From: Abditibacterium sp.
GTDB taxonomy: Bacteria; Armatimonadota; Abditibacteriia; Abditibacteriales; Abditibacteriaceae
Direction of reading: 5' to 3'
DNA length: 64,000 nt
Assembly: GCA_965199495.1 (NCBI GenBank)
Contig: CBDASK010000003.1
Coordinates: 2,464,001-2,528,000 of the forward strand
A program made the position numbers and the translations under genes. This document shows, piece after piece, positions 26,781 to 43,435 of this stretch; position 1 is the stretch's first letter, and every line of letters starts with the position of its first letter. The notes under the pieces are model-generated. The model did no database searches. It was not told where the DNA came from and saw only the letters and a list, made by a program, of their open reading frames with translations.

Positions 26781-26862
26781 AGCATAAAAGGAGAAATTCT
26801 ACTTTTTATTCTCTATCCTTCGGCTTTCATCCTTTCTCCGTGCCATACTAAACCGTTCAATT

Positions 26863-27324: not shown

Positions 27325-27382
27325 AAGTTAGAAAATGGAAGTTGTCGCGCGACGTGGCTGCTTCTGACCTCTCAAAAGAATC

Positions 27383-27817
27383 ATGGAAGACGAACCTCTG
27401 GAACCGTTGCCTTTTGGCACGCGCGTAGAAATCGGCGGGCGCACGATGCTGCGCCCCGGCTTTTCGCTCGTCGGCTTGACTGGCATGGTTTATCTGCAAT
27501 CGCCCGGCACGCCGCCCGGCTGCACAACGGTTATTGTTGACTGGAAATCGCACGGCTACACGCCCGAAGGCGGCTATCCCGAAGACAGTTTGCCGCCGAT
27601 GGTCAACGTGCCGACCCAACATTTGACGATTTTCGAGGGCGAAGTCGAAGAACCCGAAGTCAAAGCCAAACCGAAATTCGTGCCGCGCCCCGACCGCATT
27701 GACCCGCGCACCGGACGCCCCGCCGACGAAGGCGCATCGGCGCCCGCGCCAACACCAGCCACGCCGGAAGACAAAGACGACGATGAGCCAATACGCCCGG
27801 CGTTGCGGCTGGTTTAG
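27383..27817 (+). CDS. Hypothetical protein (small beta domain plus Pro/acidic tail)
   Basis: 144-aa ORF with genome-typical codon use, followed by a terminator. Confidence 0.65.
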   Translation: MEDEPLEPLPFGTRVEIGGRTMLRPGFSLVGLTGMVYLQSPGTPPGCTTVIVDWKSHGYTPEGGYPEDSLPPMVNVPTQHLTIFEGEVEEPEVKAKPKFVPRPDRIDPRTGRPADEGASAPAPTPATPEDKDDDEPIRPALRLV

Positions 27818-27831
27818 AATGTCAGGCGCAC

Positions 27832-27871
27832 AAAAATGGCGATTGAAACTCAGTTTCAATCGCCATTTTTT
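27832..27871. terminator. Bidirectional intrinsic terminator
   Basis: AAAAATGGCGATTGAAAC-TCA-GTTTCAATCGCCATTTTTT between convergent genes. Confidence 0.88.
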
Positions 27872-27873
27872 GT

Positions 27874-29034
27874 TTAAACGCCCTGCGCGCGCGCCGGGCG
27901 CGTGCCCGCTTTCAAATCATATTTTTGCGTTTTGCCGTCGCTCCACACTTCGACGCTGAGCGGCGCGCCCGGCTTGGCGCTACCAATTAAATTGCGCAGT
28001 TCGCCCGGCGTATCAATTGTTTTTCCGTTGATTTTGGTGATGACATCGGTTCCGCGTTGGCTCCACGGCACCGCTCCGGCGGGCGATTGCGGATAGACGC
28101 CCGTGACCAAAACGCCGTCTTGCAAGCCCAGTTGGTCGCCGATGTCGCCCGTGAGCGGTTGAACCGTGACGCCCAGCCAACCGCGCGTGACGTGGCCGGT
28201 GGCTGCTAACTGCGCGCCGACCGAGTGCGCCAGATTCGCCGGAATCGCCAAGCCGATGCCTTGGTTGCCGCCGCTTTCGCTCAAAATCGCGGAGTTGATG
28301 CCGACCAAATCGCCGTTAATATCAACCAACGCGCCGCCCGAATTGCCGGGGTTAATCGCGGCGTCGGTCTGCAAGAAATCTTCGTAAGCCGAAATACCCA
28401 GATCGCTGCGGCCCTTCGCCGAAATGATGCCTTGCGTCACCGTCGAACTCAAATTGAACGGACTGCCAATCGCCAAAACGATGTCGCCGACGTTGATTTT
28501 GTCGGAATCGGCCCAATTCAAAGTCGGCAAATTCGAGCCTTCGATTTTCAGCATGGCGATGTCGGAATCGGCGTCGGTGCCCAAAAGTTTGGCGGTGAAA
28601 CGGCGCCGGTCGGTCAGCGTGACCGTTATGCGCGTCGCGTTTTTGATGACGTGATTGTTGGTCACGATCAGGCCGCTACCGTCGATAATGACGCCCGAAC
28701 CCAGCGATTGCGCTTTTTGGTCGGGTTCGCGCAATGGGCGCCCGCCGAAACTGCCGTCGCCGAAGAAATCGCTCATCGGATCGCGAAAAACGCGGCCCGG
28801 AATCACGCTTTCCGATTGGATATTGACAACGGCGGGCGTGACCTTGCGCGAAATCTGCGCGTAAGTCGAGGATAACGCCGCCAAATCGTCGGCGTTACGG
28901 ATGGTGTTTTGGGCTTGCGCGGTTTTGTTGATCGAATTGGAATTATGTTGCGCGCAGGCACCAATGACAAAAGAAAGAGCCGCAACTCCCAAAACGGCGG
29001 GCACCAGACGAGGGGAACGAGAATGAATTTTCAT
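27874..29034 (-). CDS. HtrA/DegQ-family serine protease with one PDZ domain
   Basis: GSGVI, TNNHVI, DIA, QTDAAINPGNSGG, RGWLGV. Confidence 0.95.
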   Translation of the reverse strand: MKIHSRSPRLVPAVLGVAALSFVIGACAQHNSNSINKTAQAQNTIRNADDLAALSSTYAQISRKVTPAVVNIQSESVIPGRVFRDPMSDFFGDGSFGGRPLREPDQKAQSLGSGVIIDGSGLIVTNNHVIKNATRITVTLTDRRRFTAKLLGTDADSDIAMLKIEGSNLPTLNWADSDKINVGDIVLAIGSPFNLSSTVTQGIISAKGRSDLGISAYEDFLQTDAAINPGNSGGALVDINGDLVGINSAILSESGGNQGIGLAIPANLAHSVGAQLAATGHVTRGWLGVTVQPLTGDIGDQLGLQDGVLVTGVYPQSPAGAVPWSQRGTDVITKINGKTIDTPGELRNLIGSAKPGAPLSVEVWSDGKTQKYDLKAGTRPARAQGV

Positions 29035-29145
29035 GGCGGGCAGGTCGGCTCAGATTTGGTGCCGAGATTTGGGTTGGAAAGTTCGCCGAGCGCTTTGTGA
29101 CGCGCAGGTGCGCGGAGATTTGTGGAGCGCAGTGACGTTTATTCC

Positions 29146-31014
29146 TCAACCTTTCTCGACCAAATACGCCCGCGCCCCAAACTTCACCACATCGCCAATA
29201 AGCAAAGCTGTCGGCGCGTTCGCCGCCAGCTTGCGACTATTAACGAACGTGCCATTGGTCGAACCCAAATCGGTCACGATCAATGCTTTTGGCCCGATTT
29301 GCAAGCGCGCGTGGCGCGACGAAACGCCCGCGTCGGCGATGATTAAATCGTTGTCCGCCGCGCGTCCGAGAGTTAAAGTTCCGCTCGCGGGCAAGTTCAA
29401 CGCGGGTTCGCCGCGCAGTCGCCACGAAGCAGCCACCGGCATCGGCTCGGCGACGATTGGCGGTTGAATCGGCGCGGTTTGAACTGGAATCGGTGCGCGT
29501 GGCTGGATGGGCGCGGCGCCCGCGCCTTCGAGATAGAGCGTGATTTCGACGTTGCCGAAACGGCGCGTATCGCCGTTTTGGAGCGGGCGCGTTTGGCCGG
29601 TGAAATCGGTCAAAGTTGGGTGCCCGCCCTCAAAGGCGTAGCGCGCGGCGACGGCGGGGGCTTCGCGCGTGAAGATGCGACATTTGCTGCGGTCACTGCC
29701 AACGGCTAACGGCTGCGCGCCCAGACTAAGGTCGAACGCGTCTTTGGGACCATAAGAAACGTGCAGATAGGCTTTGCGAAACGCGACTTCGGCCCAGACG
29801 ACCATCGCGCCGATGGCGAAACCCAAAATCGTGGCGCCCAGCAAACGGCCCGTCACATCGTTGGCAAAACGCGCGGCCAAAATAAACGCCATCGCGCCGA
29901 TCCAGCCGCCGCCCGCGCCGCCCAAAATCGCGCGCCACGCTTGCAGATTGGGCACGAACGGCGCGAGGCCCGCGCCCAAGAGGGCGCCGCCCGCCGCCCA
30001 CGCGACCAGACGGCTGAGCGTGATGGTGAAGTTGTTATCGCCCGCGCCCGAAAAAATCAGTTGCCCCAGCAAACCGGCGACGCATCCGGCACCCAAGCCC
30101 GCCGCCATGCCGCCGATTTCGGCCCAGCCGACTTTGCGCCGCGTGGTGCGACTTTGTATGCCAATTAAAGCGATGGAGGCGCCCAATCCGACCAATGCCG
30201 CCCAGACCGCCGTGCGCGTCCATTCGAGCGCGGCGTCGTAGTTCGCGACGGCGTGCGATTGAATCATCGCGCGGCCTTTGTTGCCGGTTAAGGCTTGTTC
30301 GGCGCGCTGAAACGCTTCGCCGAAACTGCCCGCCGACGCGGCAAAAACTAAATTGGGATCGCCCGTTAATTGCGCCAGATAATCTTTGTCGGCGTCGTCG
30401 GTGCCAATCGCCACGATTTTCATCCCCGAACTCCGCGCGCCCTGCGCGACTTTTAACGTTCGAGCAACGGGATTGACATTCGTGCCATCGTCGTTCGCAC
30501 CGTCGGGATAGCCGTCGGTAAACAGTAGGATATTGCGCGCTTCGGTCGTCTGTTTGGCCGTGCCCGCGAGGGCGAGTTGCGGCGTTTGCGGCAAGGCGCC
30601 GACGGCGCTTTGCATTCCCAAATCCATGCGCGTCGAACCGTCCACGCTCAGACTGTCAATCGCGCCGTGGAGCGCCAGAGGGTCACGCGAAAGCGGGCTG
30701 ACGACGCGACTTTGCGAGTTGAATTCGATGACGGCCACGCGGGCGGTCGCGAAATCCTGCCGGTCAATATAAGCGTTGGCGGCGCGCTTCATTTCGTCGA
30801 GGGAACCGAACATCATGCTGCCCGATGTATCCAAAACCAGCGCAACAGCTTGAGGCGGCGCGGGCGGCGGCGGTGGGGGCGGCGGTGGAGGCGGCGGCGC
30901 GGTGAGCGCCAGAAATCCCTCGCCCAGCGCCGCGAAAAGCAGCGTGCCCAGCGCGGCGGTCGCGCCGAAAAGCATCGGTTTTTTCCAGCGGTTGTGGCGA
31001 GAGGGCGATTGCAT
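29146..31014 (-). CDS. Membrane protein: TM - poly-Pro - vWA - Gly-rich TM bundle - degenerate FHA-like - FHA
   Basis: DTSGSM MIDAS, GST, LFTDG; LGR..VSSRHA..DLGSTNGT. Confidence 0.88.
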   Translation of the reverse strand: MQSPSRHNRWKKPMLFGATAALGTLLFAALGEGFLALTAPPPPPPPPPPPPAPPQAVALVLDTSGSMMFGSLDEMKRAANAYIDRQDFATARVAVIEFNSQSRVVSPLSRDPLALHGAIDSLSVDGSTRMDLGMQSAVGALPQTPQLALAGTAKQTTEARNILLFTDGYPDGANDDGTNVNPVARTLKVAQGARSSGMKIVAIGTDDADKDYLAQLTGDPNLVFAASAGSFGEAFQRAEQALTGNKGRAMIQSHAVANYDAALEWTRTAVWAALVGLGASIALIGIQSRTTRRKVGWAEIGGMAAGLGAGCVAGLLGQLIFSGAGDNNFTITLSRLVAWAAGGALLGAGLAPFVPNLQAWRAILGGAGGGWIGAMAFILAARFANDVTGRLLGATILGFAIGAMVVWAEVAFRKAYLHVSYGPKDAFDLSLGAQPLAVGSDRSKCRIFTREAPAVAARYAFEGGHPTLTDFTGQTRPLQNGDTRRFGNVEITLYLEGAGAAPIQPRAPIPVQTAPIQPPIVAEPMPVAASWRLRGEPALNLPASGTLTLGRAADNDLIIADAGVSSRHARLQIGPKALIVTDLGSTNGTFVNSRKLAANAPTALLIGDVVKFGARAYLVEKG

Positions 31015-31028
31015 GGAGGAAAGTAAAA

Positions 31029-31237
31029 CGCGTTTCGGTTAGTTTGCTCTGTTCTCTCGCTTCGCTTTGTCATTCTGAGCGGCGTGAGGAACGAACGAAG
31101 TCGAAGAATCCATAACTCTCGATGAAGTGAAAGCGAAGTTCAGTCACGACCGATGGATTCTTCGACTTCGTTCGTTCCTCACGCCGCTCAGAATGACAAA
31201 GCGAAGCGAGAGAACAGAGCAAACTAACCGAAACGCG
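31029..31237. repeat. REP/REPIN-like doublet, GTCATT family with extended arms
   Basis: Perfect 85-bp IR (31029-31113 / 31153-31237); inner part related to 322-456. Confidence 0.92.
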
Positions 31238-31283
31238 CTCACAGGGACAATGAACGGCAGGCGTCATGGCTCGAAATTTAGAA

Positions 31284-32651
31284 TTACAAAGCCCGCAACG
31301 CGAAGTCGAGTTTGCCCAATCGCACGCGGTCGCCGACGTTTAATTTGCGCGCGACGTTCGGCGCCAACTTCTCGCCGTTGACGAAGGTGCCGTTGGTCGA
31401 ACCCAAATCGGTCAGTTGCAGCGCGCCGCACTGCCATTGCACTTGCGCGTGGCGCGACGAAACGCCCGCATCGGCCACGACAATCGCGCTATTGGCCGTG
31501 CGCCCGATTGTCGCGGGTTGCTCGCACTTGGGAATCGCGAGGCTGTGGCCTTGAAGCGACAAAAACGCGAAATTTGGCATCGTCGCGCGAATCGTCGGCG
31601 CGTTGGCCGAAACGGACGCGGGCGCCGTGGCTGCATCGGGCGCGGCCCAACCGGCGACCGTTTTCGCGTTAGAAGTTGCGGGCGAATTGGCGGGCGGCGC
31701 GTAAATTGGCGCGGCGGTAGGCGATGGGTAAGTGGGCGTTCGCGATTTACTTGATTTCGATTGAAAGCGAAATTGGGTGGCGCCGATTTTTAGCGTGTCG
31801 CCCGGCGTTAAGGGCGCGTTCTCGCACGCGACGCCGTTGATTCCAATGGCCTCGCCCTGCCAAAACCATTGGCCGTTTTGCGAAACTAAGGCGCCCAATT
31901 TGGCGGGCAAATGTGTGTCACGAAACAGCGAAATCGCGTTCGATTCGTCGCGACCAACCGAAACGCGCGCCGTGTTGAGCGGATATTCTTTGCCCTCGTA
32001 ATCGCCGCTCGAAATGCCCAAAAGCCACGCGTCTTTCATCGCGTCCTGCACCACACGCATCAGCAACGCGATGAGTGCGCCCATGATGATTTGGCCGACG
32101 AAGCGCGAAAACGCGCCGTCGCCGCCACTGCCGCCCAGCGAGGCCAGACCGTCGAAAACGAAGCCGCCGATGAACCCGCCCAACGCGCCGCCCAACGCGC
32201 CGCGCGCGGATTGGAGCATATCGCGGCGCACGAAACCCAATCCCACGCCGACCGCCGCGCCCATCAGCGCCCAGCCGATGCCGCGCGTGATCGAGTTTTG
32301 CACAAGCAAATACGAAGTCTGACCGGCCACGCCACCCAAAAACGAGAGCGCGAAAAACAAGGGCAACGCCAACAGCAAATCGCGATGCCATTGGCCGCGC
32401 AGACTGCGCAAGTTGTCGTAAATTAAAATCGCCGCGCCAATCGTCAGGCCGATGGCGCCCGACCACAACGCCGAACCGACGATGAGACCGACGAGATCGG
32501 TGGCGGGCGCGCCACTGTTGGCGCCCGTGAGCGAGCCGACGAGTTCGCCGACGGGGAACGACAGCAAGCCGCCGCCCGCGCCCGCAAACGCCGCCCATAA
32601 ACTGCCCGCCGAAAACGGCGAAACCGCCGTTGAAGTTGTGGTGGTGCCCAT
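31284..32651 (-). CDS. Membrane protein: Gly-rich TM bundle - degenerate FHA - FHA
   Basis: VSVGRD (first domain lacks SRxH); IGR..VSSRHA..DLGSTNGT. Confidence 0.88.
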   Translation of the reverse strand: MGTTTTSTAVSPFSAGSLWAAFAGAGGGLLSFPVGELVGSLTGANSGAPATDLVGLIVGSALWSGAIGLTIGAAILIYDNLRSLRGQWHRDLLLALPLFFALSFLGGVAGQTSYLLVQNSITRGIGWALMGAAVGVGLGFVRRDMLQSARGALGGALGGFIGGFVFDGLASLGGSGGDGAFSRFVGQIIMGALIALLMRVVQDAMKDAWLLGISSGDYEGKEYPLNTARVSVGRDESNAISLFRDTHLPAKLGALVSQNGQWFWQGEAIGINGVACENAPLTPGDTLKIGATQFRFQSKSSKSRTPTYPSPTAAPIYAPPANSPATSNAKTVAGWAAPDAATAPASVSANAPTIRATMPNFAFLSLQGHSLAIPKCEQPATIGRTANSAIVVADAGVSSRHAQVQWQCGALQLTDLGSTNGTFVNGEKLAPNVARKLNVGDRVRLGKLDFALRAL

Positions 32652-32743
32652 GAAATTTAGCGTTTTAATTGACGCGTCGGCGTTAAATTTGTGTTCATAA
32701 GAATTGCGCGGTTGAAGCCTCAGCCCCGCCGCTACGCAAATTT

Positions 32744-34642
32744 CTACATCTCGTCATTCAGCCGAATGCGGCAAATATCCACGCTATAATCGCGCGCGCC
32801 CGCCGCGATAATATAATCGTGGGGCGCTTGAGTAATCGGCGCGAAACGCAGTTTCTCGATGCGCCCGCGCATCGCCGAACCGCCGGGCGTGCGGCGCAAC
32901 GTGTAATTGCGAAACACCGCGCCCCGCGCGGTGCGAATGAAAACCGCGTCGGTTTTGCCGACTGCCACCAGACGGCTATCGGGCGACCACGCCACGCATT
33001 CGGGCAAGCCGCCCATGTCATGCTCCCACGACAGCGTGCCTTGCGCGGCGTGCCAGACGCGCAGCCTCGAATCGGCGCCAGTCGTGGCAATCCACTGCCC
33101 GTCGGGCGACCACGTGACGCCCGTCAGCGCGGCACCGTGCGCGGTGATTTGCCCGATGTCGCTCAAATCGTGGCCGCTCCACAGGCGCAACACTCCGTCC
33201 ATAATGCCCGCGACAGCCAGCGCGTTGCCATCGGGCGACCATGCGATGGCCAGCGCGCCCGGCGTGCGCCGCGCCTTGATGGCGCCCGCATCGGCGTTCC
33301 ACAGCGTCACGGCGCCCGCATCAGCCACAGCGAGTTCGCGGCGCGCCGGACAAAACGCCAAATCGCGCACCACGCCCGCGCAATCGGTCAACTGCGCCAA
33401 AGGTTTGCTGTCGCGGCTGACCAAATTGACGCCGTCCCAAATATCAACGCGCTCATCGCGCCCGCCGCTCGCCAGCAAACTGCCGTCGGGCGCGTAGGCC
33501 AGCGCCAAAACGCCGCCCGCGTGCGCGCTCCACATCGCGCGCGCCGGAGTGATGGTATCGTGCCAGTTCCACTCGCAAATTTTGCTGTCGGCGCCGCCCG
33601 AAATCAGCCGCTTACCGTCGGGCGCAAACGCCAGCGCCAACACTGGCGCGATGTGCCGTTTCATCGTCGAATTGATCAACGCCGCGTGCGTGCCCGCCGC
33701 GTCAACGCCCGCGACATCTGGCGCCGCCATTGGCGCCGTGGCTGCTGTCGAGGCGGCTCCGATTGGCGGCGGCGGGCGGCGCGCGGGCGATTTTTGACCT
33801 TTGAGTTGCGCCTCGAATTCGCCCGCCGATTGCGGGCGGCGCGCGAATTCCATCGCTAACGCGCCCATAATCGCGTCGGTGAGCAAGGGCGTCAAGCCCG
33901 GTCGGAGCGATTCGAGTTTGGGGAGCGGAACGTCGGCGGCGCGGTCGGTGGCGGCGACGGGTTTGGTTCCGCTCAGCGCGTGATAGAGCGTGGCGGCCAG
34001 AGCGTAAATATCGCTGGCCGGGCCGCGTTTGGCGTTGGAGGCGTATTGTTCGAGCGGCGCGTAACCCGGCGTCACGATTTGCGTCATTTTGGTCGCGCTA
34101 TGGTCAAAAGCGCGCGCCGTGCCGAAATCAATCAAAACCGCGCCGCCGCTCCGGCGCAAAATCACGTTATCGGGCTTAATATCGCGATGCAAAACGCCCG
34201 CGCCATGAACAACCGCAAGCGCGCCCGCCAAGCGCGAACCGATGTCGGTCACTTCCCATTCGTCCAATCGCGTTTTGTCCTGGATGCGCGCTTCGAGCGT
34301 CTCGCCCTCGATCCATTCCATCACCATGTAGGCAGTGTTATTTTCTTCAAATGTGCCCGCGACGCCGACGATGCCGGGATGCTGGAAGCGGCCCAAAACG
34401 CGCGCTTCGTTGAGAAATTCGGCGACGCCCCGATGAAGAGCCACGGCGTCGGCCATCACGACATCGCGGCCCTGGCGCAACGCGCCCGCCGGGAAGTATT
34501 CTTTGATGGCGACGTAACGTTTGAGCGCCATATCGCCGCCTTTGTAGGTGATGCCGAAGCCGCCCTGCCCCAAAACTTCGCCGAGGGCATAGGTGCCGTT
34601 GTGAAGTCGAGTGCCGCGAGGCAGGGCGGAAGTGGAAGGCAT
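32744..34642 (-). CDS. Hanks-type Ser/Thr protein kinase with WD40 repeats
   Basis: GQGGFG, VAIKE, HRDIKPDN, DFG, GYAPLEQ; repeats LAFAPDG/WSPDG..S(T)GG.D. Confidence 0.95.
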   Translation of the reverse strand: MPSTSALPRGTRLHNGTYALGEVLGQGGFGITYKGGDMALKRYVAIKEYFPAGALRQGRDVVMADAVALHRGVAEFLNEARVLGRFQHPGIVGVAGTFEENNTAYMVMEWIEGETLEARIQDKTRLDEWEVTDIGSRLAGALAVVHGAGVLHRDIKPDNVILRRSGGAVLIDFGTARAFDHSATKMTQIVTPGYAPLEQYASNAKRGPASDIYALAATLYHALSGTKPVAATDRAADVPLPKLESLRPGLTPLLTDAIMGALAMEFARRPQSAGEFEAQLKGQKSPARRPPPPIGAASTAATAPMAAPDVAGVDAAGTHAALINSTMKRHIAPVLALAFAPDGKRLISGGADSKICEWNWHDTITPARAMWSAHAGGVLALAYAPDGSLLASGGRDERVDIWDGVNLVSRDSKPLAQLTDCAGVVRDLAFCPARRELAVADAGAVTLWNADAGAIKARRTPGALAIAWSPDGNALAVAGIMDGVLRLWSGHDLSDIGQITAHGAALTGVTWSPDGQWIATTGADSRLRVWHAAQGTLSWEHDMGGLPECVAWSPDSRLVAVGKTDAVFIRTARGAVFRNYTLRRTPGGSAMRGRIEKLRFAPITQAPHDYIIAAGARDYSVDICRIRLNDEM

Positions 34643-34691
34643 TTTGTGTGCTATAAGTATTGTAAGTTAGATATTGCGCCATTGGCCGGTT

Positions 34692-34852
34692 TGTCATTTC
34701 GAGCGCCGGGTGCCCCCTGGGCGGCAGAAATCTTTTGGCCCCGCGCCAGCGGAAATGATGCAAAAGCCTGAAGGTGAAAACCGCTCCAACTGCGCTGCCG
34801 CGCGGGCGCAAGATTTCTGCCGCCCAGGGGGCACCCGGCGCTCGAAATGACA
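34692..34852. repeat. REP/REPIN-like doublet, GTCATT family variant
   Basis: Perfect 43-bp IR TGTCATTTCGAGCGCCGGGTGCCCCCTGGGCGGCAGAAATCTT (34692-34734 / 34810-34852). Confidence 0.9.
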
Positions 34853-34859
34853 GGCCACT

Positions 34860-35732
34860 TCAACCCGCGCGCCCGTCTTTAACCGTCACTGCGCCCGCGT
34901 TGCGGCTCTCCAACACGCCCTCGAACGGCACCGACTGGTTGGGCGTGTATTTCGGCAACGTCTGCGGCGGCGTCGCATCAAGATCAATCGTCACTTTTAA
35001 AGCGCCTTTGACGTTTTTGCAATTGACAATTAGCGGCCCGGTGGCTGCATTGCCCAGGCTGACGAACTCGCCGCGCCAGTTGATTTTCTTGCCCTGAACC
35101 GAATCCCAGTAAAGCGATTGTTGCTGCGGCGTGCCCGTCGTGAGATTGGCGTAAAGTTCGTCAAATGTCGGCCCGCTTGCAGCCACGGCGCCGGTTGTCG
35201 GTGCGGCAGTCGCGTTTGGCGTTGGTTCGCTTGTCGGCGCCGTCGTCGCTTGCGCGGTTGGCGCGACCGTCGGTTGCGCGGTTGTGGCGGGCACAATCGG
35301 CGCGAGCGCCGTCGTCGCGCTGGGCGTAGGAGCCACGGCGACCGTCGGCGCCGGTTTTTTGCCCAGCAACGCCCACAACGCCATGCCCAGAAGCAACCAT
35401 CCCAAGCCGCCCGCGACCATCGCCCACGCGGGGACTTGCACCTTGTTTTGCGCGCGCTGCGCCATCGTCGGCGCGCCTTTTGGCGTTGGCGATTCAACAA
35501 TCGGCGTCGGTTTCGCTTCGCCCATCGGCGGAATTGCGACGGTTTTGGCGCCCGCATCGGTCGGCGTGGCAGATGGCGCGACGACGGGTTGCGGCGCCGA
35601 CTTTTGGGGCACATCTTTGGGCGCGACATAACCCGGCGCCCACGGCAACGCCGCGCCGCATTTGTAGCATTTCTCGACGTATTTCGAGTTTTTGGCGCCG
35701 CAAACGGCGCACTGGCCGAGATCAACTTTCAT
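34860..35732 (-). CDS. Zinc-ribbon - Pro-rich linker - TM - Pro/Thr/Ala linker - small OB-like domain protein
   Basis: CAVC..CYKC; single TM; C-terminal GKKINWRGEF..FEG. Confidence 0.7.
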   Translation of the reverse strand: MKVDLGQCAVCGAKNSKYVEKCYKCGAALPWAPGYVAPKDVPQKSAPQPVVAPSATPTDAGAKTVAIPPMGEAKPTPIVESPTPKGAPTMAQRAQNKVQVPAWAMVAGGLGWLLLGMALWALLGKKPAPTVAVAPTPSATTALAPIVPATTAQPTVAPTAQATTAPTSEPTPNATAAPTTGAVAASGPTFDELYANLTTGTPQQQSLYWDSVQGKKINWRGEFVSLGNAATGPLIVNCKNVKGALKVTIDLDATPPQTLPKYTPNQSVPFEGVLESRNAGAVTVKDGRAG

Positions 35733-35754
35733 GATTTTAGTTTAGATTTAACCT

Positions 35755-37590
35755 TCAATAGCCGTTGCCGCCGCTCCCCGAAACGCCGCTCAAAAATGTG
35801 GCGCTGAGCCACAGTCCCCACAAAACCGTGCCGATAATTCCCATAATGCGTCCGGCCTGCACCGTGCCTCGGTCGCCGGGGTCGCTATCGCCGTAGGCCG
35901 CGAGCGCGTTGTTGCCGGTAATCCACGCGACGGGCGCGAAAATGCCGCAACAGAAAAACCCCAAAATGCCATAAGTCAAAACCGTGCCGCCCCGCTTTGC
36001 GATAAACGGCTGCATCGCTGGCGAGTAGCCACCGCCGCCCTGCGGGTGCGGAATCGGCGGCGCATAGGGATTATTTTGTGGATAAACCGGCGCGGGCGCC
36101 ATGCCGACCGACGGATCGGCGGGCAGGTTGCGCAATTCGGTCGTAAGAATTCCGATTAAACGGCGCGTTTCATCTTTGCCGCGTCCGTAATCGCTGACCG
36201 TCATCGAGTTCGACGGGCGCGAATCCACCGTCACCATCACGCCGCGATTGTCCTGCGTGACCTGCCCGCTCACGCTTTGCGAATTGGAGCGTAAGTCCAA
36301 ACCGGTTTTGCCCAAAACACGGTAATTGGGTGCATCAACTTCGGGTTGCAGGATGCCAAATAGTCCAAAGCTGCGCTGAACCGCGAGCAAAACTCTGGTG
36401 GGCGCCGCGTTGGTGAGCAGTTGATTTTCGGAAATCTGCGTCACCGTCGCGCTGCCCGTGGCTGCACCGGGCGCCGGAGCAAACGGTACACTCGTTGGCG
36501 CCCCCGTGCCCCAGCCGCCGCCCATCTGCGTCAGGGCGTTGTCAACGGCGGGCGTCGGCACGAGCGGCGCCGCTTGCGGACGTTTAATCGCGTCCAAAAA
36601 CGCGCCGATGTTTTGCGGGCGTTCGCTGGCTTTCACCTGCATCGCCCACACCAAAGCATCAGAAAAAGTTTTGGAAAGTTTCGGGTTTAACTCGCGCGGC
36701 GCTTTCAGTTCGACGCCCGCCGCCCGGTCGGTCGCTTGGGGCGGAACTTGGCCAGTGACCGCGTGATAAAGCGTGGCTGCGAGCGCATAAATATCGGTAT
36801 ACGCGCCAAAGCGCGCCTGTTGCCCGTATTGTTCGAGCGGCGCGTAACCCGGCGTCAGCATCGTGGTTTGCTTGACGGTTTTGCCGCTCGCAAACGCGCG
36901 CGCCGTGCCAAAATCAATCAAAACCACGCGGCCATCTTTGGTCAGACAGATGTTATCGGGCTTCAAATCGCGATGAATAATGCCCGCGTCGTGAACGACT
37001 TTAAGCGCGACGCCGACTTTCTCGGCAATCGTAACCGCTTCGCTTTCGTCCAACACGGTTTGCTCGATCATGCGTTTGCTCAAAGTCGAACCTTCGAGAA
37101 ATTCCATCACCATGTAAGCGGTGTTATTCTCTTCAAAGACGCCGAAAACGCGCACGATGCCCGGATCGGAAAAGCGCGCCAGAGTGCGCGCCTCCTCGAT
37201 GAATTTGGCTTTGACGTTGGCGTAATCCGCCGCCGACAAAGTCCCGGCAGGTTGCACCGTGGCGTCCTGGCGCGCGCAGCCTTGCGGGAAAAATTCTTTG
37301 ATGGCGACGTAGCGCCGCAAATTCAAATCGCCGCCTTTATAAGTGATGCCGAAACCGCCTTGCCCCAAAACTTCGCCGACGGCGTAATTGCCGTTATTGA
37401 GGCGCACGCCCTTGGGCAATTGCGGCGAATAAGCGGCGGGCGCGATGCCGTGGCTGGATGTGCCACCGGTCTTAATGCCGGGCGTGCCGCTCATCGGCGT
37501 GCCCGTCGCGCTGAGGCCGAGCGCCGCGCCGCACGCGGCGCACGTCAAGGCGTTATCGGGGTTTTGGTGTCCGCAAACTGCGCAAATCAT
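35755..37590 (-). CDS. Zinc-ribbon Hanks-type Ser/Thr kinase with C-terminal DUF4190-like TM hairpin
   Basis: CAVC..CAAC; GQGGFG, VAIKE, HRDLKPDN, DFG, GYAPLEQ; GILGFFCCG..AWITG..AGRIMGIIG. Confidence 0.93.
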   Translation of the reverse strand: MICAVCGHQNPDNALTCAACGAALGLSATGTPMSGTPGIKTGGTSSHGIAPAAYSPQLPKGVRLNNGNYAVGEVLGQGGFGITYKGGDLNLRRYVAIKEFFPQGCARQDATVQPAGTLSAADYANVKAKFIEEARTLARFSDPGIVRVFGVFEENNTAYMVMEFLEGSTLSKRMIEQTVLDESEAVTIAEKVGVALKVVHDAGIIHRDLKPDNICLTKDGRVVLIDFGTARAFASGKTVKQTTMLTPGYAPLEQYGQQARFGAYTDIYALAATLYHAVTGQVPPQATDRAAGVELKAPRELNPKLSKTFSDALVWAMQVKASERPQNIGAFLDAIKRPQAAPLVPTPAVDNALTQMGGGWGTGAPTSVPFAPAPGAATGSATVTQISENQLLTNAAPTRVLLAVQRSFGLFGILQPEVDAPNYRVLGKTGLDLRSNSQSVSGQVTQDNRGVMVTVDSRPSNSMTVSDYGRGKDETRRLIGILTTELRNLPADPSVGMAPAPVYPQNNPYAPPIPHPQGGGGYSPAMQPFIAKRGGTVLTYGILGFFCCGIFAPVAWITGNNALAAYGDSDPGDRGTVQAGRIMGIIGTVLWGLWLSATFLSGVSGSGGNGY

Positions 37591-37600
37591 AATGTAAAAG

Positions 37601-37733
37601 GGGACAGGAAACAGGAGACAAGGGAGACGGGGGAAACGCTACTCTCGCCAGACGCGCCTTAAAAGTCATAGTCACCCGATTGTTGTCATGCTCATTTCCT
37701 GTCTCCTGTTTCCCTCGTTTCCTGTCTCCTGTT
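37601..37733. repeat. Degenerate heptamer-based purine/pyrimidine inverted repeat
   Basis: ACAGGAA ACAGGAG ACAAGGG.. (37601-37637) opposite TTTCCTG TCTCCTG TTTCC.. (37695-37733). Confidence 0.7.
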
Positions 37734-39140
37734 CTACGTTCCCGTCATACGACGAATCTCTTCCGCCGACAAGCCACCGCGCCCGTCGTCGCCGACGACG
37801 GCGGTTTTGATGGTTTTGGTTTTCAGGCCCAACTGAACGGTTTTGGCGGTGCCGACCGAAATCGCGCCACTCGAATTCAGTTCGTCCATCGCGTTGGTCA
37901 GCATTTGCGTCATGGCGGCGTTGCCCAAGCGCTGCGTCATGCCCGCCGCGACTTGTAACGTTTGGCCCGCGCGCGAGGCGTCAATCGTCGCGATGCGCAC
38001 GGCGTCCTCGACCAAACGGCCCACGTTTTTCTGCTGCACGTAGCCGATAATTTCGGCATCAACGGCGGCAATCGCGGCTTCGTCGGTGGTGAACTCGATA
38101 AACAAGTTTTCGGGCGGAAACTCCTGCACGCGGCCCAAACCGGGCGCGTTGGCGACCAAGCCCAACTGCGAAATCCGCACGCGCGAAGGCGGACGCTCGA
38201 CGCCCTCGACCGTCATCTCGAAAATAAAAACGGTGAAATCGCCTTTCTCGATGTTGCCCAAACGCAACGGTTTTTCGCCCGCGTTGACATCGGCCAAATT
38301 GGGATAAACCCGCGTCACCGCGTTGACGCTGACGCCCTTAACGCTCGAAATCGTCGCCTTCAAATCGGTGACGACTTCGTTGATGCCTTTACCGATTTCC
38401 TCTTGCAAGACCGCGCCCATATCGGTGATTTCGCGCACATGATAAGGTCGTCCCTGCGTCGCGTCGGCCATCTGGCGCATCAGTTCGGCGTTGTATTCTT
38501 CGCCAAAACCAATCGAAATAATCGGCGTATTCGATTGCGCAAACGACGGCAAAAGTTCGCTGCACTGTTCTTCGTCAAATGCCGCGCCGTCGGTGAAAAC
38601 GATGGCGCGCTTGGCGGTTTCGGGCGGCAAGCGATTCATTTCGGCCAGAGCGCAGCGAAGTCCCTGCGCCATGCGCGTGCCTCCAGCGAAATCGCGCAAA
38701 CTTTCAATCGCCGAATGCAAATTGCCGCGTTGCGAAACCGGCGTGAGTGGCACCAAAGTGCGCGCTTCGTCATCGAAATGAATAATCGAAATCGTGTCGG
38801 TGGGCGCTAAGCGTTCGTCGTCCACCATGATGTGCGCGGCCTGAATCGCCTGATCTAATAACGTCGGCAAATTCATGTCGTAGGCGGCGTAGTTGCCGCC
38901 GTCCATCGCGCTGTCGCGGCCCTGCGCGCCGATCTGCTGGGCCAGCGTTTTGGCCTCGCTTTGGTCGGCGTACGATTGCATCGAGGCGCTGGTATCAATC
39001 ACGAGCGCGAGCGCGAGCGGCGGGCGCGAGGCGGCGACTTGCGCTTCGGGAATCATTTTAAGCATGGCGAACACTTTTTGCGCGTCGCCCGTGCCCGCTT
39101 TGAGACTGTTGCGGTGCGGCTTCCAGATGATTTTTAACAT
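37734..39140 (-). CDS. Cytoplasmic vWA-domain protein with beta-rich region and Thr-rich helical C-terminus
   Basis: VIDTSASM MIDAS, GGT, VFTDG, GFGEEYN; C-terminal GTAKTVQLGLKTKTIKT. Confidence 0.92.
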   Translation of the reverse strand: MLKIIWKPHRNSLKAGTGDAQKVFAMLKMIPEAQVAASRPPLALALVIDTSASMQSYADQSEAKTLAQQIGAQGRDSAMDGGNYAAYDMNLPTLLDQAIQAAHIMVDDERLAPTDTISIIHFDDEARTLVPLTPVSQRGNLHSAIESLRDFAGGTRMAQGLRCALAEMNRLPPETAKRAIVFTDGAAFDEEQCSELLPSFAQSNTPIISIGFGEEYNAELMRQMADATQGRPYHVREITDMGAVLQEEIGKGINEVVTDLKATISSVKGVSVNAVTRVYPNLADVNAGEKPLRLGNIEKGDFTVFIFEMTVEGVERPPSRVRISQLGLVANAPGLGRVQEFPPENLFIEFTTDEAAIAAVDAEIIGYVQQKNVGRLVEDAVRIATIDASRAGQTLQVAAGMTQRLGNAAMTQMLTNAMDELNSSGAISVGTAKTVQLGLKTKTIKTAVVGDDGRGGLSAEEIRRMTGT

Positions 39141-39170
39141 GATTTTAAGTCGTTTGAATTTCTTGTGCTT

Positions 39171-39267
39171 CGTAGAGACACCGACTTGTCGTGTCTAAAA
39201 AGGTCTGATTTGCTTCAACTTTGCGATAGCTCCGACGTTTTAGACACGACAAGTCGGTGTCTCTACG
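39171..39267. repeat. GTAG-type REP doublet
   Basis: Perfect 30-bp IR CGTAGAGACACCGACTTGTCGTGTCTAAAA (39171-39200 / 39238-39267). Confidence 0.92.
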
Positions 39268-39288
39268 GGGCACGATAGAAACCGAAAC

Positions 39289-41238
39289 CTATCCAAAAAC
39301 CGGCGCCGCGCTTTCGTCCAACCGAAACAAAACCAGCGTCGCGTTATCCGGCGCGCCGCGTTGCAACGCCAACTTGAGCAGCGCCCGCGTCGCGCCGCGC
39401 AAATCGTTCCCGCCAATCGCTTCGGACATTTCGCTTTCGACGACCGGCTCCCACAAACCGTCCGAACAGGCCAGCAACACGTCGCCGCTTTGCAAATCCA
39501 AAGTCGGCGTTTGCTTTTGCACCGCCAAAGTGTCAATGAAATAATCGGGTTGCGGATGGCGCTCGCCCAGACTGCGCGTGACTTTGTTGCGGTCGCCGTG
39601 CGTGCGAATTTCCTCAAACGTGATTTCGCCCTGCAACAACAGCGACATCACGAACGAATGATCGCGCGACAAGAGTTCGTATTCGCCATTTCGCAACAAA
39701 TAAAAGCGCCCATCGCCGACATGCGCGATAGACAGGCGTTTTTCGATGACCAAACCGGCGTCGAGCGTGCAGCCACCGCGCGCGCCGCGCGCTTGCATCG
39801 CGTTCACGACGGCGCCGTTCGAGAGCGCCGCCCAATCTTTGACCAACTGCGCTTGCTGCGCGGCGGGCAACGCCGACAAATCCGCGTTATCGGTCGCTCC
39901 GGCCCACGATGACGCGGCGTCCAAAAACGTTTGAACCGCGACTTCACTCGCGACTTCGCCCGCCGCCATGCCGCCCATGCCGTCGGCCACGATAAACGCT
40001 GACCAAGCCAATGGCCCGCTTTCGGTTTCCCACGCGCCGCCAAGCACGCCAAACGCGTCCTGATTGGTGACGCGCGACGGCTCCAAACCAATCGTTGATA
40101 ATCCGCATCCATCGTGCGACACGGTCGGCTTGAGGCGCGCTTTGAGTTTGACGAGCGCCTTATGCAATTCGGACGCGTTGTTAAATCGCGTGTCGGCTTC
40201 GCCCAGCACCCGCCGCAAAATTTGCGGCACGCCCGCCATGACGACGCGCGGCTTCCAACTCAAAAAATCAACGCCGCTTTCGGGCACAGCTTCGCCGGTC
40301 ACGGCGCGATAGAGCAGCGCGCCGACGGCATATAAATCGGAGCGCGCGTCTACTTTGCCGGGCTGCAAAAGTTCGGGCGCCGAATAGCCCGCCAGCGAAA
40401 GCGCCGCTTCGAGCGGTTCGCCAATCGGCGCGGCGAACGAACAATCCAAGATTTGCACCGGTTTGCCCGAAACGATGTCTTCAGGCCGCAACCCCAAATG
40501 CGCGAATCCAACTTCGTGCAAGCGCACCAAGAACGCCGCGACTTGCGTTAAAAGCAACAAAGTCTCGCCCAGAAACTCGGTTTCGCTGGCTTCGCGCTGT
40601 TCGGCGGGCAATGCAGCCACGGCGGCTTCGTGCGCGCTGAAAAACTGGCCAAGCGTCGGCCCACTCGTCGGCATCTCGGTCGCGAGATAAACGCAATTAT
40701 CGCTCGCAAAACCACTAATCACGCGCGGCAACATCGCCAAGCGCGCGGCCTCTTCCCAGTGCGCGCGCCACATCTTTTCGCGGCTCAAGCGCTCGCCCCA
40801 TTCGCCGCTCGCCTGCCGCAAACGCCCGGCTTGTTCTTCGCCATCGCCGCGTTGCCAGCGCGCGCGATAAACGTTCTCGCCGCCGCGCGTCTCCAAATGC
40901 TCTTCGACAATAAAAACGCCATCGAAAGCCCGAATTGGCGCGCCGACTTCCAATATCGGCGGCGCGACCGACGGCAACGGCTCGCTCCATTCTTCGAGTT
41001 CACCATCATCTTCAATTATCGGCGCTATTTCGGTGGAAATTTGCGCTTCGGGCGCGGCGAATTCCACATCGAACTCGGACAAATCGGTTTCGACTTCAGC
41101 GATTGGTTCGAGCGCAATTGGCTCAATAAATTCGGCGATGGGCGCTTCATCGGGCGGCGTGGCTGTTGGCTCGGTAGGCATTTGCGGTTCGGGATTCGAG
41201 GTTTTGCCCGCGCCTTTTAAAATATTGAAGAGGCTCAT
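39289..41238 (-). CDS. Acidic N-terminus - pseudokinase - PP2C (PPM) Ser/Thr phosphatase fusion
   Basis: HLGLRPEDI, LDCS, GYSAPE, DLYAVG; NQDA, VADGMGG, HVGD, DHS, RSLG, CSDGLW, DNAT. Confidence 0.9.
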   Translation of the reverse strand: MSLFNILKGAGKTSNPEPQMPTEPTATPPDEAPIAEFIEPIALEPIAEVETDLSEFDVEFAAPEAQISTEIAPIIEDDGELEEWSEPLPSVAPPILEVGAPIRAFDGVFIVEEHLETRGGENVYRARWQRGDGEEQAGRLRQASGEWGERLSREKMWRAHWEEAARLAMLPRVISGFASDNCVYLATEMPTSGPTLGQFFSAHEAAVAALPAEQREASETEFLGETLLLLTQVAAFLVRLHEVGFAHLGLRPEDIVSGKPVQILDCSFAAPIGEPLEAALSLAGYSAPELLQPGKVDARSDLYAVGALLYRAVTGEAVPESGVDFLSWKPRVVMAGVPQILRRVLGEADTRFNNASELHKALVKLKARLKPTVSHDGCGLSTIGLEPSRVTNQDAFGVLGGAWETESGPLAWSAFIVADGMGGMAAGEVASEVAVQTFLDAASSWAGATDNADLSALPAAQQAQLVKDWAALSNGAVVNAMQARGARGGCTLDAGLVIEKRLSIAHVGDGRFYLLRNGEYELLSRDHSFVMSLLLQGEITFEEIRTHGDRNKVTRSLGERHPQPDYFIDTLAVQKQTPTLDLQSGDVLLACSDGLWEPVVESEMSEAIGGNDLRGATRALLKLALQRGAPDNATLVLFRLDESAAPVFG

Positions 41239-41254
41239 AACTTGGGAGAAATTT

Positions 41255-41349
41255 GTAGAGACGCCGATTTATCGCGTCTAAAACGTGAATGAATTCGTGA
41301 AGTTTGCGGGCACTTCCACGTTTTAGACGCGATAAATCGGCGTCTCTAC
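41255..41349. repeat. GTAG-type REP doublet (same family as 39171-39267)
   Basis: Perfect 33-bp IR GTAGAGACGCCGATTTATCGCGTCTAAAACGTG (41255-41287 / 41317-41349). Confidence 0.92.
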
Positions 41350-41358
41350 GGCATTGCA

Positions 41359-42003
41359 TCAATCCACTCCGAACTCGAAACGCGCGTTGCCCAGCGAAAT
41401 TTCGTCGCCTGCGTTTAATTCCTGTTCGCCGCTCAAACGCGAAAACGCGCCTGCGCCGCCCGCGCGCCAAAAGGTGCCGTTGCTCGATCCCATATCTTTG
41501 ACAAACCATTTGCTGTTGCCACCATCGCGGCGAAACTCGGCGTGATGGCGCGAAACATACGACGCTTCGGGCAAAGGCGCCAAATCTACGTCAACCGGGC
41601 CACTATCGGGATCGAAGCGCCCGACGACGGCGCCGCTGGCAAAACGAAACGTTTCGCTTGTCAAAGCGCCGCCGCGCCGCAACGTGATATGCGCCATCTC
41701 GGTCGCCGTGGCTGCTGTGGGCACAGGCGTTGATGCGATTTGCGATTTATCGAGAACAACTGTCGAATCGGACGGGGAAAATTCGTAATTCGGCGCGTCC
41801 AGATTCATCGGTTCGGCGGCGTTATCGCCGCCGAATTCGTTGCCAAAGTCAACGGTATAACCGGCGCCGTCGTTGCCGCCGCTTGCAATGGGCGCGATTT
41901 GCGGCGCGTTGGCGGCGGGAACGGACTCGAATTCCATGCCGCAGTCGGGACAGACATCGGCATCGTCGGCGACGCTGGCGCCGCAGGTTAAACAGGTTTT
42001 CAT
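41359..42003 (-). CDS. Zinc-ribbon plus FHA domain protein
   Basis: CLTC..CPDC; VGR..VDL..VSRHHA..DMGSSNGT; TAGAAT 7 nt before ATG 42003. Confidence 0.92.
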   Translation of the reverse strand: MKTCLTCGASVADDADVCPDCGMEFESVPAANAPQIAPIASGGNDGAGYTVDFGNEFGGDNAAEPMNLDAPNYEFSPSDSTVVLDKSQIASTPVPTAATATEMAHITLRRGGALTSETFRFASGAVVGRFDPDSGPVDVDLAPLPEASYVSRHHAEFRRDGGNSKWFVKDMGSSNGTFWRAGGAGAFSRLSGEQELNAGDEISLGNARFEFGVD

Positions 42004-42050
42004 AGGACGCATTCTATTTTAGTTGATTCGGTGGACAAATTCGCCAAATA

Positions 42051-43247
42051 TTAACCCAACTTATTCACCCACATCATCGGAATCGCGTAGCTCATGCCGG
42101 TGCCCTCGACGCCGCTCGAAATGACACCGACGACCTCGCCGCGATTATTTACAACCGGCCCGCCCGAATTGCCGTGTGTGACTGAGCCGCCCAACTGAAT
42201 CACCGAAACCGCGCCACTTTTGTCGGTTTGCAAACGTTCGACGCGCACGGCTTTCACCGAAACCGAAGGCAAATCGCCATCGAGCGTTAAAGTTTGCACG
42301 CCAAGCGGAAAGCCGACGACGTAAACCTCGTCGGTTTCTTGCAGCGCTTCGGAACGGCCCGCCGAAAGCGCCGGAGATTGCCCGGCGTCGAGCGTGATTG
42401 TGGCCAAATCGTCCTGAAAGTCGGCGCCCTGCGTTTGGGGCGCGACGCGGATGCTCGAAGCAGCCACGGCGACGCTTCGTTCGCGCGGCGTGCCCGCATC
42501 GAAGATCAAACGGCAAGGGGCGACGCTGCCATCGGCGTTGACGACGACATGGCGATTGGTCACGATGCGGCGCGCATCGCCCAGCGCGAACCCCGAACCC
42601 ATCGCCCACGCGTTGCCGTCGCGGTGCGCGATTAACACTGTCGCGGCTTTGACATTTTGCAACGCGGCGGGCGCCAATTTGCCGCCGACCGGTTCGACGC
42701 CGGGCGCCAGTTGCGTTTGAGAGGCGTCCACATTTGTCGGCGCGGCGGGCACTTTGGGCAAATTCTCGACGCGGGCGCTGGGCGCCGTGGCTGCATCGGG
42801 CGCGCCCTGTCCGCGCAGTCCTATGACGCCCAGCACCAGCACAATCGCCGCCGTGCCCGCGATGCCCCCTTTTTGCGGCGCGCCCAATGCGTGCCATCTG
42901 TTCAGTTTTTGCTTGGCGTTACTTTTAACCTCGCTCGCAGACGATTTTCGCGATGACGGCAATTGCACCGTCGCGTTGAAATCGCCCAGTTGGATTTGGT
43001 CGCCGTCGCGCAAGTTGGCTTTGTCCACTTTCTTGCCGTTGACCAGCAAACCGTTGGTGGAGTGTTCATCGCTGACCGACAAAGTTTTGCCGTCCCAACC
43101 GAAGCGCGCGTGACGTCGCGAAACGCGTTGATAACCGCTCAGTTCCAGATCGCAATCGGCGGCGCGCCCGATGAATTGCGTGCCGGTGAGAGCCAGCGTG
43201 CGGCCCGTCATTGGGCCGCTTTGAACGAGAAGCGTAGGGAAATTCAT
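42051..43247 (-). CDS. FHA - TM - trypsin-like serine protease
   Basis: IGR..VSRRHA..STNG; single TM; GSGF, TNRHVV, DLA, GNSGGP. Confidence 0.9.
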   Translation of the reverse strand: MNFPTLLVQSGPMTGRTLALTGTQFIGRAADCDLELSGYQRVSRRHARFGWDGKTLSVSDEHSTNGLLVNGKKVDKANLRDGDQIQLGDFNATVQLPSSRKSSASEVKSNAKQKLNRWHALGAPQKGGIAGTAAIVLVLGVIGLRGQGAPDAATAPSARVENLPKVPAAPTNVDASQTQLAPGVEPVGGKLAPAALQNVKAATVLIAHRDGNAWAMGSGFALGDARRIVTNRHVVVNADGSVAPCRLIFDAGTPRERSVAVAASSIRVAPQTQGADFQDDLATITLDAGQSPALSAGRSEALQETDEVYVVGFPLGVQTLTLDGDLPSVSVKAVRVERLQTDKSGAVSVIQLGGSVTHGNSGGPVVNNRGEVVGVISSGVEGTGMSYAIPMMWVNKLG

Positions 43248-43314
43248 CGGAGCAAACGCACCAGAGTCGCGCGCTGGAAGTATGAAATAATTCGAGATGA
43301 GTTGACGAAAAACC

Positions 43315-43351
43315 AAAAACGCCCACCGAAAGTCAATCGGCGGGCGTTTTT
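43315..43351 (-). terminator. Terminator downstream of tRNA-Pro
   Basis: AAAAACGCCCACCGA..TCGGCGGGCGTTTTT. Confidence 0.75.
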
Positions 43352-43361
43352 AAATTGCAAT

Positions 43362-43435
43362 TCGGGATAGCCGGATTTGAACCGACGACCTCTTGACCCC
43401 CAGTCAAGCGCGCTACCAAGCTGCGCCATATCCCG
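43362..43435 (-). tRNA. tRNA-Pro (GGG), CCA not encoded
   Basis: CGGGATATGGCGCAGCTTGGTAGCGCGCTTGACTGGGGGTCAAGAGGTCGTCGGTTCAAATCCGGCTATCCCGA folds as a cloverleaf with anticodon GGG. Confidence 0.97.

Follow-up and report, generated by a model that had tools for sequence, protein, structure and literature searches.

The question raised by this locus is what kind of system is encoded by ten co-oriented open reading frames (ORFs) at positions 27874-43247, minus strand, of a stretch of Abditibacterium sp. DNA of 64,000 nucleotides, here called the window (contig CBDASK010000003.1, positions 2,464,001 to 2,528,000). The ORFs, designated g1 to g10 in the order of transcription, contain no internal stops, are separated by gaps of 22-269 bp and run from an FHA-membrane helix-trypsin gene (g1) to an HtrA gene (g10). 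An earlier note, made from the sequence alone, had taken them for a signalling system that may be undescribed. This part of the claim does not hold, as the core matches the DRA0331-0334 operon of Deinococcus radiodurans by orthology and the ArnA/ArnB pair of Sulfolobus structurally. The core belongs to an operon type already described, the membrane and kinase genes added to it vary among relatives, and the whole does not amount to a new class of system. By analogy with the archaeal proteins, we consider it probable that g2-g5 constitute a phosphothreonine switch of the ArnA/ArnB type, which in this lineage has been enlarged by further kinases and by FHA proteins anchored in the membrane. The ten genes are as follows.

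42051..43247, minus strand: g1, 398 aa, FHA, one membrane helix and a trypsin-like protease domain (Trypsin_2) predicted outside the membrane; accessory
41359..42012, minus strand: g2, 217 aa, zinc ribbon, linker and FHA; ArnA-like, DRA0333/FraH-like; core
39289..41238, minus strand: g3, 649 aa, acidic disordered N-terminus, pseudokinase (~aa 90-370) and PP2C; DRA0334-like; core
37734..39140, minus strand: g4, 468 aa, split beta-sandwich, vWA with an adhesion site that depends on metal ions (MIDAS), four-helix bundle and terminal helix; ArnB-like, DRA0331-like; core hub
35755..37590, minus strand: g5, 611 aa, zinc ribbon, Hanks kinase, unnamed domain and two membrane helices (DUF4190-like); DRA0332-like; core kinase
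34860..35732, minus strand: g6, 290 aa, zinc ribbon, membrane helix, Pro/Thr/Ala stalk and OB-like domain predicted outside; lineage-specific accessory
32744..34642, minus strand: g7, 632 aa, Hanks kinase of the g5 subfamily and WD40 propeller; accessory kinase
31284..32651, minus strand: g8, 455 aa, membrane domain of six predicted helices followed by a degenerate and a canonical FHA; accessory membrane reader
29146..31014, minus strand: g9, 622 aa, g8-type membrane domain with a vWA in the first outer loop (predicted), degenerate FHA and canonical FHA; accessory
27874..29034, minus strand: g10, 386 aa, HtrA/Do protease with one PDZ; family-wide resident gene, likely outside the system

The gene order and domains given in the earlier note were borne out by the ORFs and by Pfam/NCBIfam, where the DUF4190 match of g5 lies below the Pfam cut-off and the Pkinase match in g3 and the zinc ribbon match in g6 are weak. 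Its description of a Ser/Thr phospho-signalling set also stands, with g5 and g7 as writers, g3 as eraser and four canonical FHA readers. The Gly-loop, VAIK, HRD and DFG motifs are intact in g5 and g7, as are His/Asp/Ser in the proteases g1 and g10; the PP2C aspartates are kept in g3, GR/SxxH/NG in the four FHAs and MIDAS in both vWAs (g4 and g9). Four of the six FHA matches in the whole 4.8-Mb genome fall inside this 15-kb cluster.

Judged by homology, g2-g5 are the Abditibacterium counterpart of DRA0331-0334, gene for gene. The best tblastn matches of the four Deinococcus proteins in this genome were g4, g5, g2 and g3 (34.6% identity over the full length for g4, 43% for g5, 54% over the FHA for g2 and 36.5% over 419 aa for g3), and in the reverse search, against the plasmid set only, g4 and g3 each matched the Deinococcus record once. 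The record carries other tags, and the locus was equated with DRA0331-0334 via species, gene order and domain positions; its ZnR-FHA gene (ZnR, zinc ribbon) is annotated as two adjacent coding sequences (L059:11178-12121; L and G numbers are our handles for loci and genomes, G000 being this genome). Among 72,556 plasmid records, g4 matched 12, all from Deinococcus or cyanobacteria, at 35-38% identity over the full length. Six of these 12 loci were opened, and vWA, FHA and PP2C genes were found together in all six, with a kinase also in five. The homology and adjacency of the genes agree with a DRA0331-0334-type operon, whereas their order does not; gene order varies among loci and is therefore no stable feature of the core. 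According to the accessible part of a preprint (10.64898/2026.01.23.701218), DRA0334 dephosphorylates DRA0332 and other kinases, and DRA0333 is a phosphorylation substrate of DRA0332; that part reports no test of the vWA protein and does not name ArnB. The PP2C motifs of g3 and the kinase motifs of g5 are intact, activity, including that of a Mn-dependent phosphatase on the kinase of the operon, having been demonstrated for the Deinococcus proteins only.

The link to the archaeal switch comes from g4 and g2. In a sequence search of the PDB, the g4 profile matched Vwa2 (5a8j), ArnB (8s05_A) and a Catenulispora vWA protein (4fx5). The AlphaFold model of g4 (predicted local distance difference test score, pLDDT, 88) superimposes on ArnB 8s05_A with Z 34.7 and a root mean square deviation (rmsd) of 2.7 Å over 367 residues at 16% identity, on 4fx5 with Z 38.3 and on Vwa2 with Z 30.8, the next unrelated row having Z 24.3. 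The likeness of 4fx5 to ArnB has been noted before (PMC6509490, seen in part). As modelled, g4 has a three-domain ArnB-type fold with MIDAS, and we take it for a cytoplasmic hub. The top PDB matches of g2 were ArnA (5a8i and 8s05_C, E 7e-5), and its layout is that of ArnA, with an N-terminal four-Cys zinc finger, a linker and an FHA with phosphothreonine-binding motifs. In the archaeal pair, as described in the accessible part of PMC12852372, the ArnA zinc finger binds loosely to unphosphorylated ArnB, the ArnC kinase phosphorylates threonines of the ArnB helical bundle, and the ArnA FHA then binds tightly. The C-terminal helical bundle of g4 has four threonines at aa 431-443 (T431, T434, T441 and T443), each of which is conserved without exception in the 36 relatives aligned. 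An EEIRxxTG-like helix at the terminus, which has low confidence in the monomer model, is kept across the 25-row g4 clade of the vWA tree (a quick run, no bootstrap), is absent from four distant vWAs and may be a docking motif. A prediction of g4 in complex with the g5 zinc ribbon and Zn gave a median of 0.34 against a best control of 0.21, and was counted neither for nor against binding. Run against 1.84 billion representatives, the g4 profile matched 252 clusters with E values up to 1e-30, part of which are multi-vWA proteins of a generic kind. We found no paper joining the Deinococcus operon to ArnA/ArnB for bacteria, in literature searches that most subscription journals lay beyond.

In the model of the third core protein, g3, a PP2C is joined to a kinase fold from which the catalytic residues are missing. 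The model of aa 96-369 resembles PknB (Z 24.1, rmsd 2.5 Å), and g3 resembles tPphA (Z 27.3); in the kinase-like domain the Gly loop is absent, HRD is replaced by HLG and DFG by DCS. A Foldseek search with whole g3 returned PP2C rows only, and a wider search picked out the N-terminal domain. This bears on the Deinococcus phosphatase (gene L059:12123-13973), of which aa 210-368 are labelled 'KI-FHA' in the accessible part of the preprint (10.64898/2026.01.23.701218). DRA0334 aa 229-614 align with g3 aa 225-639 and thereby with its kinase C-lobe, and a profile of nine FHAs matched none of six phosphatases, DRA0334 included; from these alignments the 'KI-FHA' region is therefore more likely a degenerate kinase lobe than an FHA. 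The profile of 41 kinases gave a weak match to aa 288-324 of DRA0334. For D. radiodurans, a phosphatase+kinase is listed in one row of a table in PMC1262709, seen in part.

Taken together as a switch, the proteins would work as follows. At rest, the zinc ribbon of g2 would bind g4 loosely, by analogy to ArnA/ArnB. A membrane or cytoplasmic cue would activate g5 or g7, which would phosphorylate threonines of the C-terminal bundle of g4 and probably g2 as well (cf. DRA0332 on DRA0333), and the FHA of g2 would then bind g4 tightly. The FHAs of g8, g9 and g1 would draw phosphorylated partners to the inner membrane, while g3, aimed by its pseudokinase domain, would strip the phosphates and reset the switch. 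The weakest step is the output, for which the most likely candidate is that partners encoded elsewhere control an envelope stress response, or a general one, post-translationally.

Several points weigh against an ArnA/ArnB-type switch. The match of g2 to ArnA spans the FHA only (aa 146-210), g4 and ArnB share those 16% of residues only, and ArnB-like folds are described as widespread and mostly not for multi-phosphorylation in the accessible part of Watad et al. (PMC12852372). Of the 22 genomes in the phylum that carry the g5 kinase subfamily, eight lack a g4-clade match. The membrane reader g8 has no adjacent kinase in seven of 14 relatives and is retained in members of the genus that have neither g3 nor a close g4, and can therefore serve other pathways. 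Furthermore, no output protein came to light.

Five of the nine genes other than HtrA encode predicted membrane proteins, and g1, g6 and g9 have outward domains. The membrane readers g8 and g9 have in common a Gly-rich membrane domain, for which no Pfam family was found, a degenerate FHA-like domain and a canonical FHA. Their predicted topology, from hydropathy and positive-inside counts on hand-placed segments, has six helices, with the vWA of g9 in the first outer loop. The two vWA scaffolds of the earlier note are thus alike in having MIDAS and differ in kind, g4 being cytoplasmic and ArnB-like and the g9 vWA being predicted outside the membrane. Orthologues of g8 occur in 15 of 26 family genomes and adjoin a g5-family kinase in the other seven of the 14 relatives examined, relatives of g9 occur in nine of 26 (near g8 in three), and full-length g6 relatives in three of 26. 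Comparable membrane-FHA clusters in Planctomycetota, Spirochaetota and Cyanobacteriota, and the OB-like C-terminus of g6 (cosine 0.92/0.91), are Atlas leads only.

The first rival reading concerns the output, and holds that the switch mainly signals DNA damage or oxidative stress, a role that has been proposed for S. islandicus ArnA and for the operon of Deinococcus. In the accessible part of the preprint (10.64898/2026.01.23.701218), DRA0334 is connected with RqkA, and DRA0331 and DRA0333 are cited as overexpressed in a mutant of oxyR; ArnA has been termed a DNA-damage response repressor (PMC10470591, seen in part). No repair gene is adjacent, and the membrane proteins and outward domains predicted here fit envelope cues better; we regard this output as unlikely. 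It is in any case compatible with the core mechanism.

The kinases vary more than the core. In g7, sequence motifs and membrane-helix prediction revealed neither a zinc ribbon nor a membrane helix, and no Pfam family was found for aa 385-495 of g5. A stand-alone 228-aa gene in another locus (L005:6688-7374) matches the unnamed domain and the membrane tail of g5 without a kinase, and has no Pfam hit. Relatives of g4 are followed by one to four kinases whose tails are WD40, TPR, GYF, SH3/beta-helix, DUF4190-like or of no Pfam family. Among 55 hand-picked genes of these loci, 41 encode kinases; a four-Cys ribbon is present on 34 of the 41 and on nine non-kinases, and a similar ribbon on 18 of 18 FHA partners. 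The ribbon is not exclusive, as the pattern occurs in 73 ORFs of this genome and several unrelated ones score as high as array members. In a kinase tree of 40 of the 41 rows (one of <200 aa was dropped; bootstrap not settled), duplicates within a locus group together, with rough support, in G004, Deinococcus and two metagenome loci, whereas g5 and g7 do not; the recent duplicates in G004 bear unrelated tails. A type IV secretion coupling-protein-like gene lies within a kinase array on one metagenome contig (L068:15075-16673).

This genome has two further signalling regions. The second locus (L001:9980-19987, C3 ~3.540-3.550 Mb) contains a g4 paralogue (40% identity) followed by two 1,200-aa ZnR-kinase-membrane helix-WD40 genes and a ZnR-WD40 gene; FHA and PP2C genes are absent from it. 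Paralogues of g4 with ribbon-bearing genes and without FHA/PP2C are also found in G003, G004, G005, G008, G009, G011, G013, G014 and G020. The third region (C3 ~1.410-1.432 Mb; L002:5434-14508) has kinase-FHA, PP2C and kinase genes and, ~10 kb on (L003:4771-6860), a distant vWA and a double-ZnR-FHA gene, with SIR2, HD, AEP-like and PIN genes nearby. Because ribbons are carried by 34 of 41 kinases, nine kinase-less neighbours and all 18 FHA partners, and because g4 paralogues sit with ribbon genes in loci lacking FHA/PP2C and the G004 duplicates have unrelated tails, we tentatively raise the possibility that the zinc ribbon is a common docking tag. An ArnB-like hub would then read swappable ribbon-bearing kinases and adaptors that compete with the FHA protein for one site, the sensors at their ends differing (WD40, TPR, GYF, SH3/beta-helix, DUF4190-like and OB-like). 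If true, such a tag would represent a modular, eukaryote-style scaffold network in bacteria. Literature searches with most subscription journals outside their reach yielded no paper on the docking-tag idea or on ribbon-kinase arrays.

Variable tails of this kind could also belong to a defence or conflict system, in which they sense phage or competitor molecules and the kinase arrests growth, as in KKP. The patchy spread (15 of 301 genomes), the occurrence on cyanobacterial plasmids and the tandem kinases with swapped tails would suit such a role, and ZnR-kinase, PP2C and vWA genes adjoin some actinobacterial GTPase-centric conflict systems (Kaur et al., PMC7159879, seen in part). However, no nuclease, NADase or other effector domain was found among the cluster proteins, PADLOC matches were generic kinase or trypsin only, and g4 matched none of 50,697 phage records, for which reasons we think a defence role improbable. 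In addition, the G+C content at third codon positions (GC3) of the cluster genes is 0.65-0.76, comparable to that of seven of the eight flanking genes checked, and KKP, as given in the accessible part of PMC11341870, is a PP2C-kinase-kinase triplet whose kinases bear FHA and CSD fusions, of which the order and the defining CSD kinase are absent here.

Conservation of linkage, which the earlier note had set as a check on its proposal, goes half against it and separates the core from the rest: the g2-g3-g4 linkage is kept, whereas linkage of all ten genes does not extend beyond two or three closely related species and is broken up in five sisters. The three genes are adjacent and in the same order in all seven genus relatives with a full-length g3, and g2-g3-g4-g5 are adjacent in G026 and G049, which belong to other families. 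G004 has g1-g9 and, in addition, two kinases and an ORF, its g4 being 94% identical, and G011 has all ten genes on two contigs that break at the g5/g6 junction; all ten are together only in this genome and probably in G011. In the five sister species (G002, G003, G009, G010 and G012), the set is split over several loci, and the core has no adjoining kinase, the kinases lying elsewhere and beside g8 in four of the five. The g4 orthologue of G003 (L044:43-1503) is interrupted by one TAA. Across 301 genomes of the phylum, which are kin and not independent, the g4 clade occurs in 15, the g5 kinase subfamily in 22, both in 14 and neither in 278. The related-locus search of genome contigs gave three close loci; the metagenome scan covered seven of 64 parts, and eight of its 56 loci, the full-length matches, were annotated.

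The same survey bears on the reading that all ten genes, both proteases included, form one co-transcribed trans-envelope system. Co-orientation, short gaps, terminators at both ends, the ten genes of G011 and the canonical FHA on g1 are in its favour. However, HtrA orthologues occur in 24 of 26 family genomes and adjoin g9 in one of 16 contexts examined. In G003, G009 and G012, where the cluster is not beside it, HtrA faces the same response-regulator and 144-aa genes, and in G004 it lies on another contig. On the other side, G015 has a g6-like gene at 4.4 kb from HtrA, and G017 a kinase of the g5 family at 3.6 kb. HtrA is likely a resident neighbour and not part of the system. At the other end, g1 is beside g2 in G004 and G011 and alone in five of the seven relatives that have it (the five sister species). 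The description of a cluster bracketed by two proteases thus fails for HtrA and finds g1 mostly on its own. Co-occurrence of g1, g3 and g4 was rejected as independent evidence: genomes with the three genes form one clade on the HtrA tree (Shimodaira-Hasegawa-like approximate likelihood ratio test, SH-aLRT, 95; a quick run, no bootstrap), and the co-occurrence therefore counts as one event. A single ten-gene system is accordingly improbable. As for a Ter-type vWA/PP2C/kinase triad of the E. coli yegL-pphC-yegI kind, it is very improbable despite the same three domain classes (yeg operon, 10.1101/819920, by description and in its accessible part) and six TerD-family matches in two groups in this genome (G000:C3 2849759-2898268), as these Ter genes are unlinked at 350-400 kb from the cluster, NCBIfam gives g4 no TerY-type match, g4 has the ArnB three-domain fold, and neither FHA (here ZnR-FHA) nor pseudokinase has a counterpart in the triad as described.

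A domain scan of the cluster agreed with the earlier note that no Ter, type VI secretion system (T6SS) or DNA-binding gene is present, and VipB, the one marker used for a T6SS pathway, was not found in the genome (95% complete). The strong terminator that it placed after g10 was also recovered, as a hairpin of -24.1 kcal/mol. Features that it had missed are the tRNA-Pro with its terminator, the palindromes, the second, degenerate FHA in g8 and g9 and the lack of a zinc ribbon and of a membrane helix in g7. The features outside the coding regions of g1-g10 are the following.

43362..43435, minus strand: tRNA-Pro(GGG), upstream neighbour of g1, outside the system; at the same position in G011, not seen in the locus of G004
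43313..43353, minus strand: intrinsic terminator 3' of tRNA-Pro, -27.0 kcal/mol, ~65 bp before g1
41255..41349, no strand: intergenic palindromic repeat, repetitive extragenic palindrome (REP)-like, ~139 genome loci
39165..39273, no strand: intergenic palindromic repeat, ~132 genome loci
37596..37733, no strand: intergenic imperfect palindrome, ~18 genome loci
34692..34852, no strand: intergenic palindromic repeat, ~69 genome loci
31029..31237, no strand: 85-bp perfect inverted repeat, REP-like, ~75 genome loci
27829..27873, no strand: bidirectional terminator between g10 and a convergent 144-aa gene, hairpin of -24.1 kcal/mol flanked on either side by A/U runs

The palindromes are REP-like, belong to several families and occupy five of the nine intergenic gaps; with 18-139 copies each across the genome, they were rejected as parts of the system. 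There is no support for a recent horizontal acquisition at the tRNA: the composition is unremarkable, and the tRNA is absent from the locus of G004. A promoter scan of the window gave 10 sites against 6.1 +/- 2.5 expected and was not used as evidence. Beyond the terminator, positions 24891-27817 of the window contain a GAF-GAF histidine kinase, a receiver-only regulator and the 144-aa gene, which has no Pfam hit; this set faces HtrA in several relatives, and in G011 only, a KilA-N gene and others (L125:8264-9112) lie between HtrA and the 144-aa gene.

An ArnA/ArnB-type switch in g2-g5 would tie a bacterial operon of patchy distribution, which has been studied only through its Deinococcus enzymes until now, to a solved archaeal switch. 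It predicts that the threonines of the g4 tail are the substrate, that there are two binding modes, and that a pseudokinase, not an FHA, is the docking domain of the phosphatase. The step downstream of ArnA/ArnB is given as unresolved in the accessible part of PMC12852372, and bacterial versions with their own kinases would offer an easier test. Kinase arrays that differ from locus to locus illustrate how a switch of this type acquires new inputs.

Compared with known systems, the cluster is closest to DRA0331-0334 in content, with the same four proteins at 35-54% identity, zinc ribbons on both the FHA protein and the kinase, and a second ZnR-kinase coming next in the Deinococcus locus as well. 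It differs in order, which is FHA-PP2C-vWA-kinase here and vWA-kinase-FHA-PP2C in Deinococcus, and in g1, g6, g8 and g9, which have no counterpart there. The vWA-FHA-PP2C-kinase loci on cyanobacterial plasmids (Tolypothrix, Gloeothece, Nostoc and Trichormus), known from annotation only, have the core genes in common with this cluster, in another order, with terminal TPRs on the kinases and with ARC6-family and serine hydrolase neighbours. Membrane vWA proteins like g9 (34-36% identity) are encoded in both loci tested, Tolypothrix and Gloeothece, and membrane components therefore recur in independent lineages; the membrane proteins tested do not match the C-terminal FHA of g9, and one Gloeothece gene is the membrane domain alone. 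With Sulfolobus ArnA/ArnB (PDB 8s05, 5a8i and 5a8j; PMC6509490 and PMC12852372), which represses archaellum genes whereas the host here is a bacterium, the cluster shares a zinc finger-linker-FHA protein and a protein made up of beta-sandwich, vWA and four-helix bundle that has MIDAS and a tail rich in Thr. Unlike the Sulfolobus module, which is reset by PP2A, it has a linked PP2C with a pseudokinase, kinases within the operon that bear their own zinc ribbons, an extra C-terminal helix on g4 and membrane FHA proteins.

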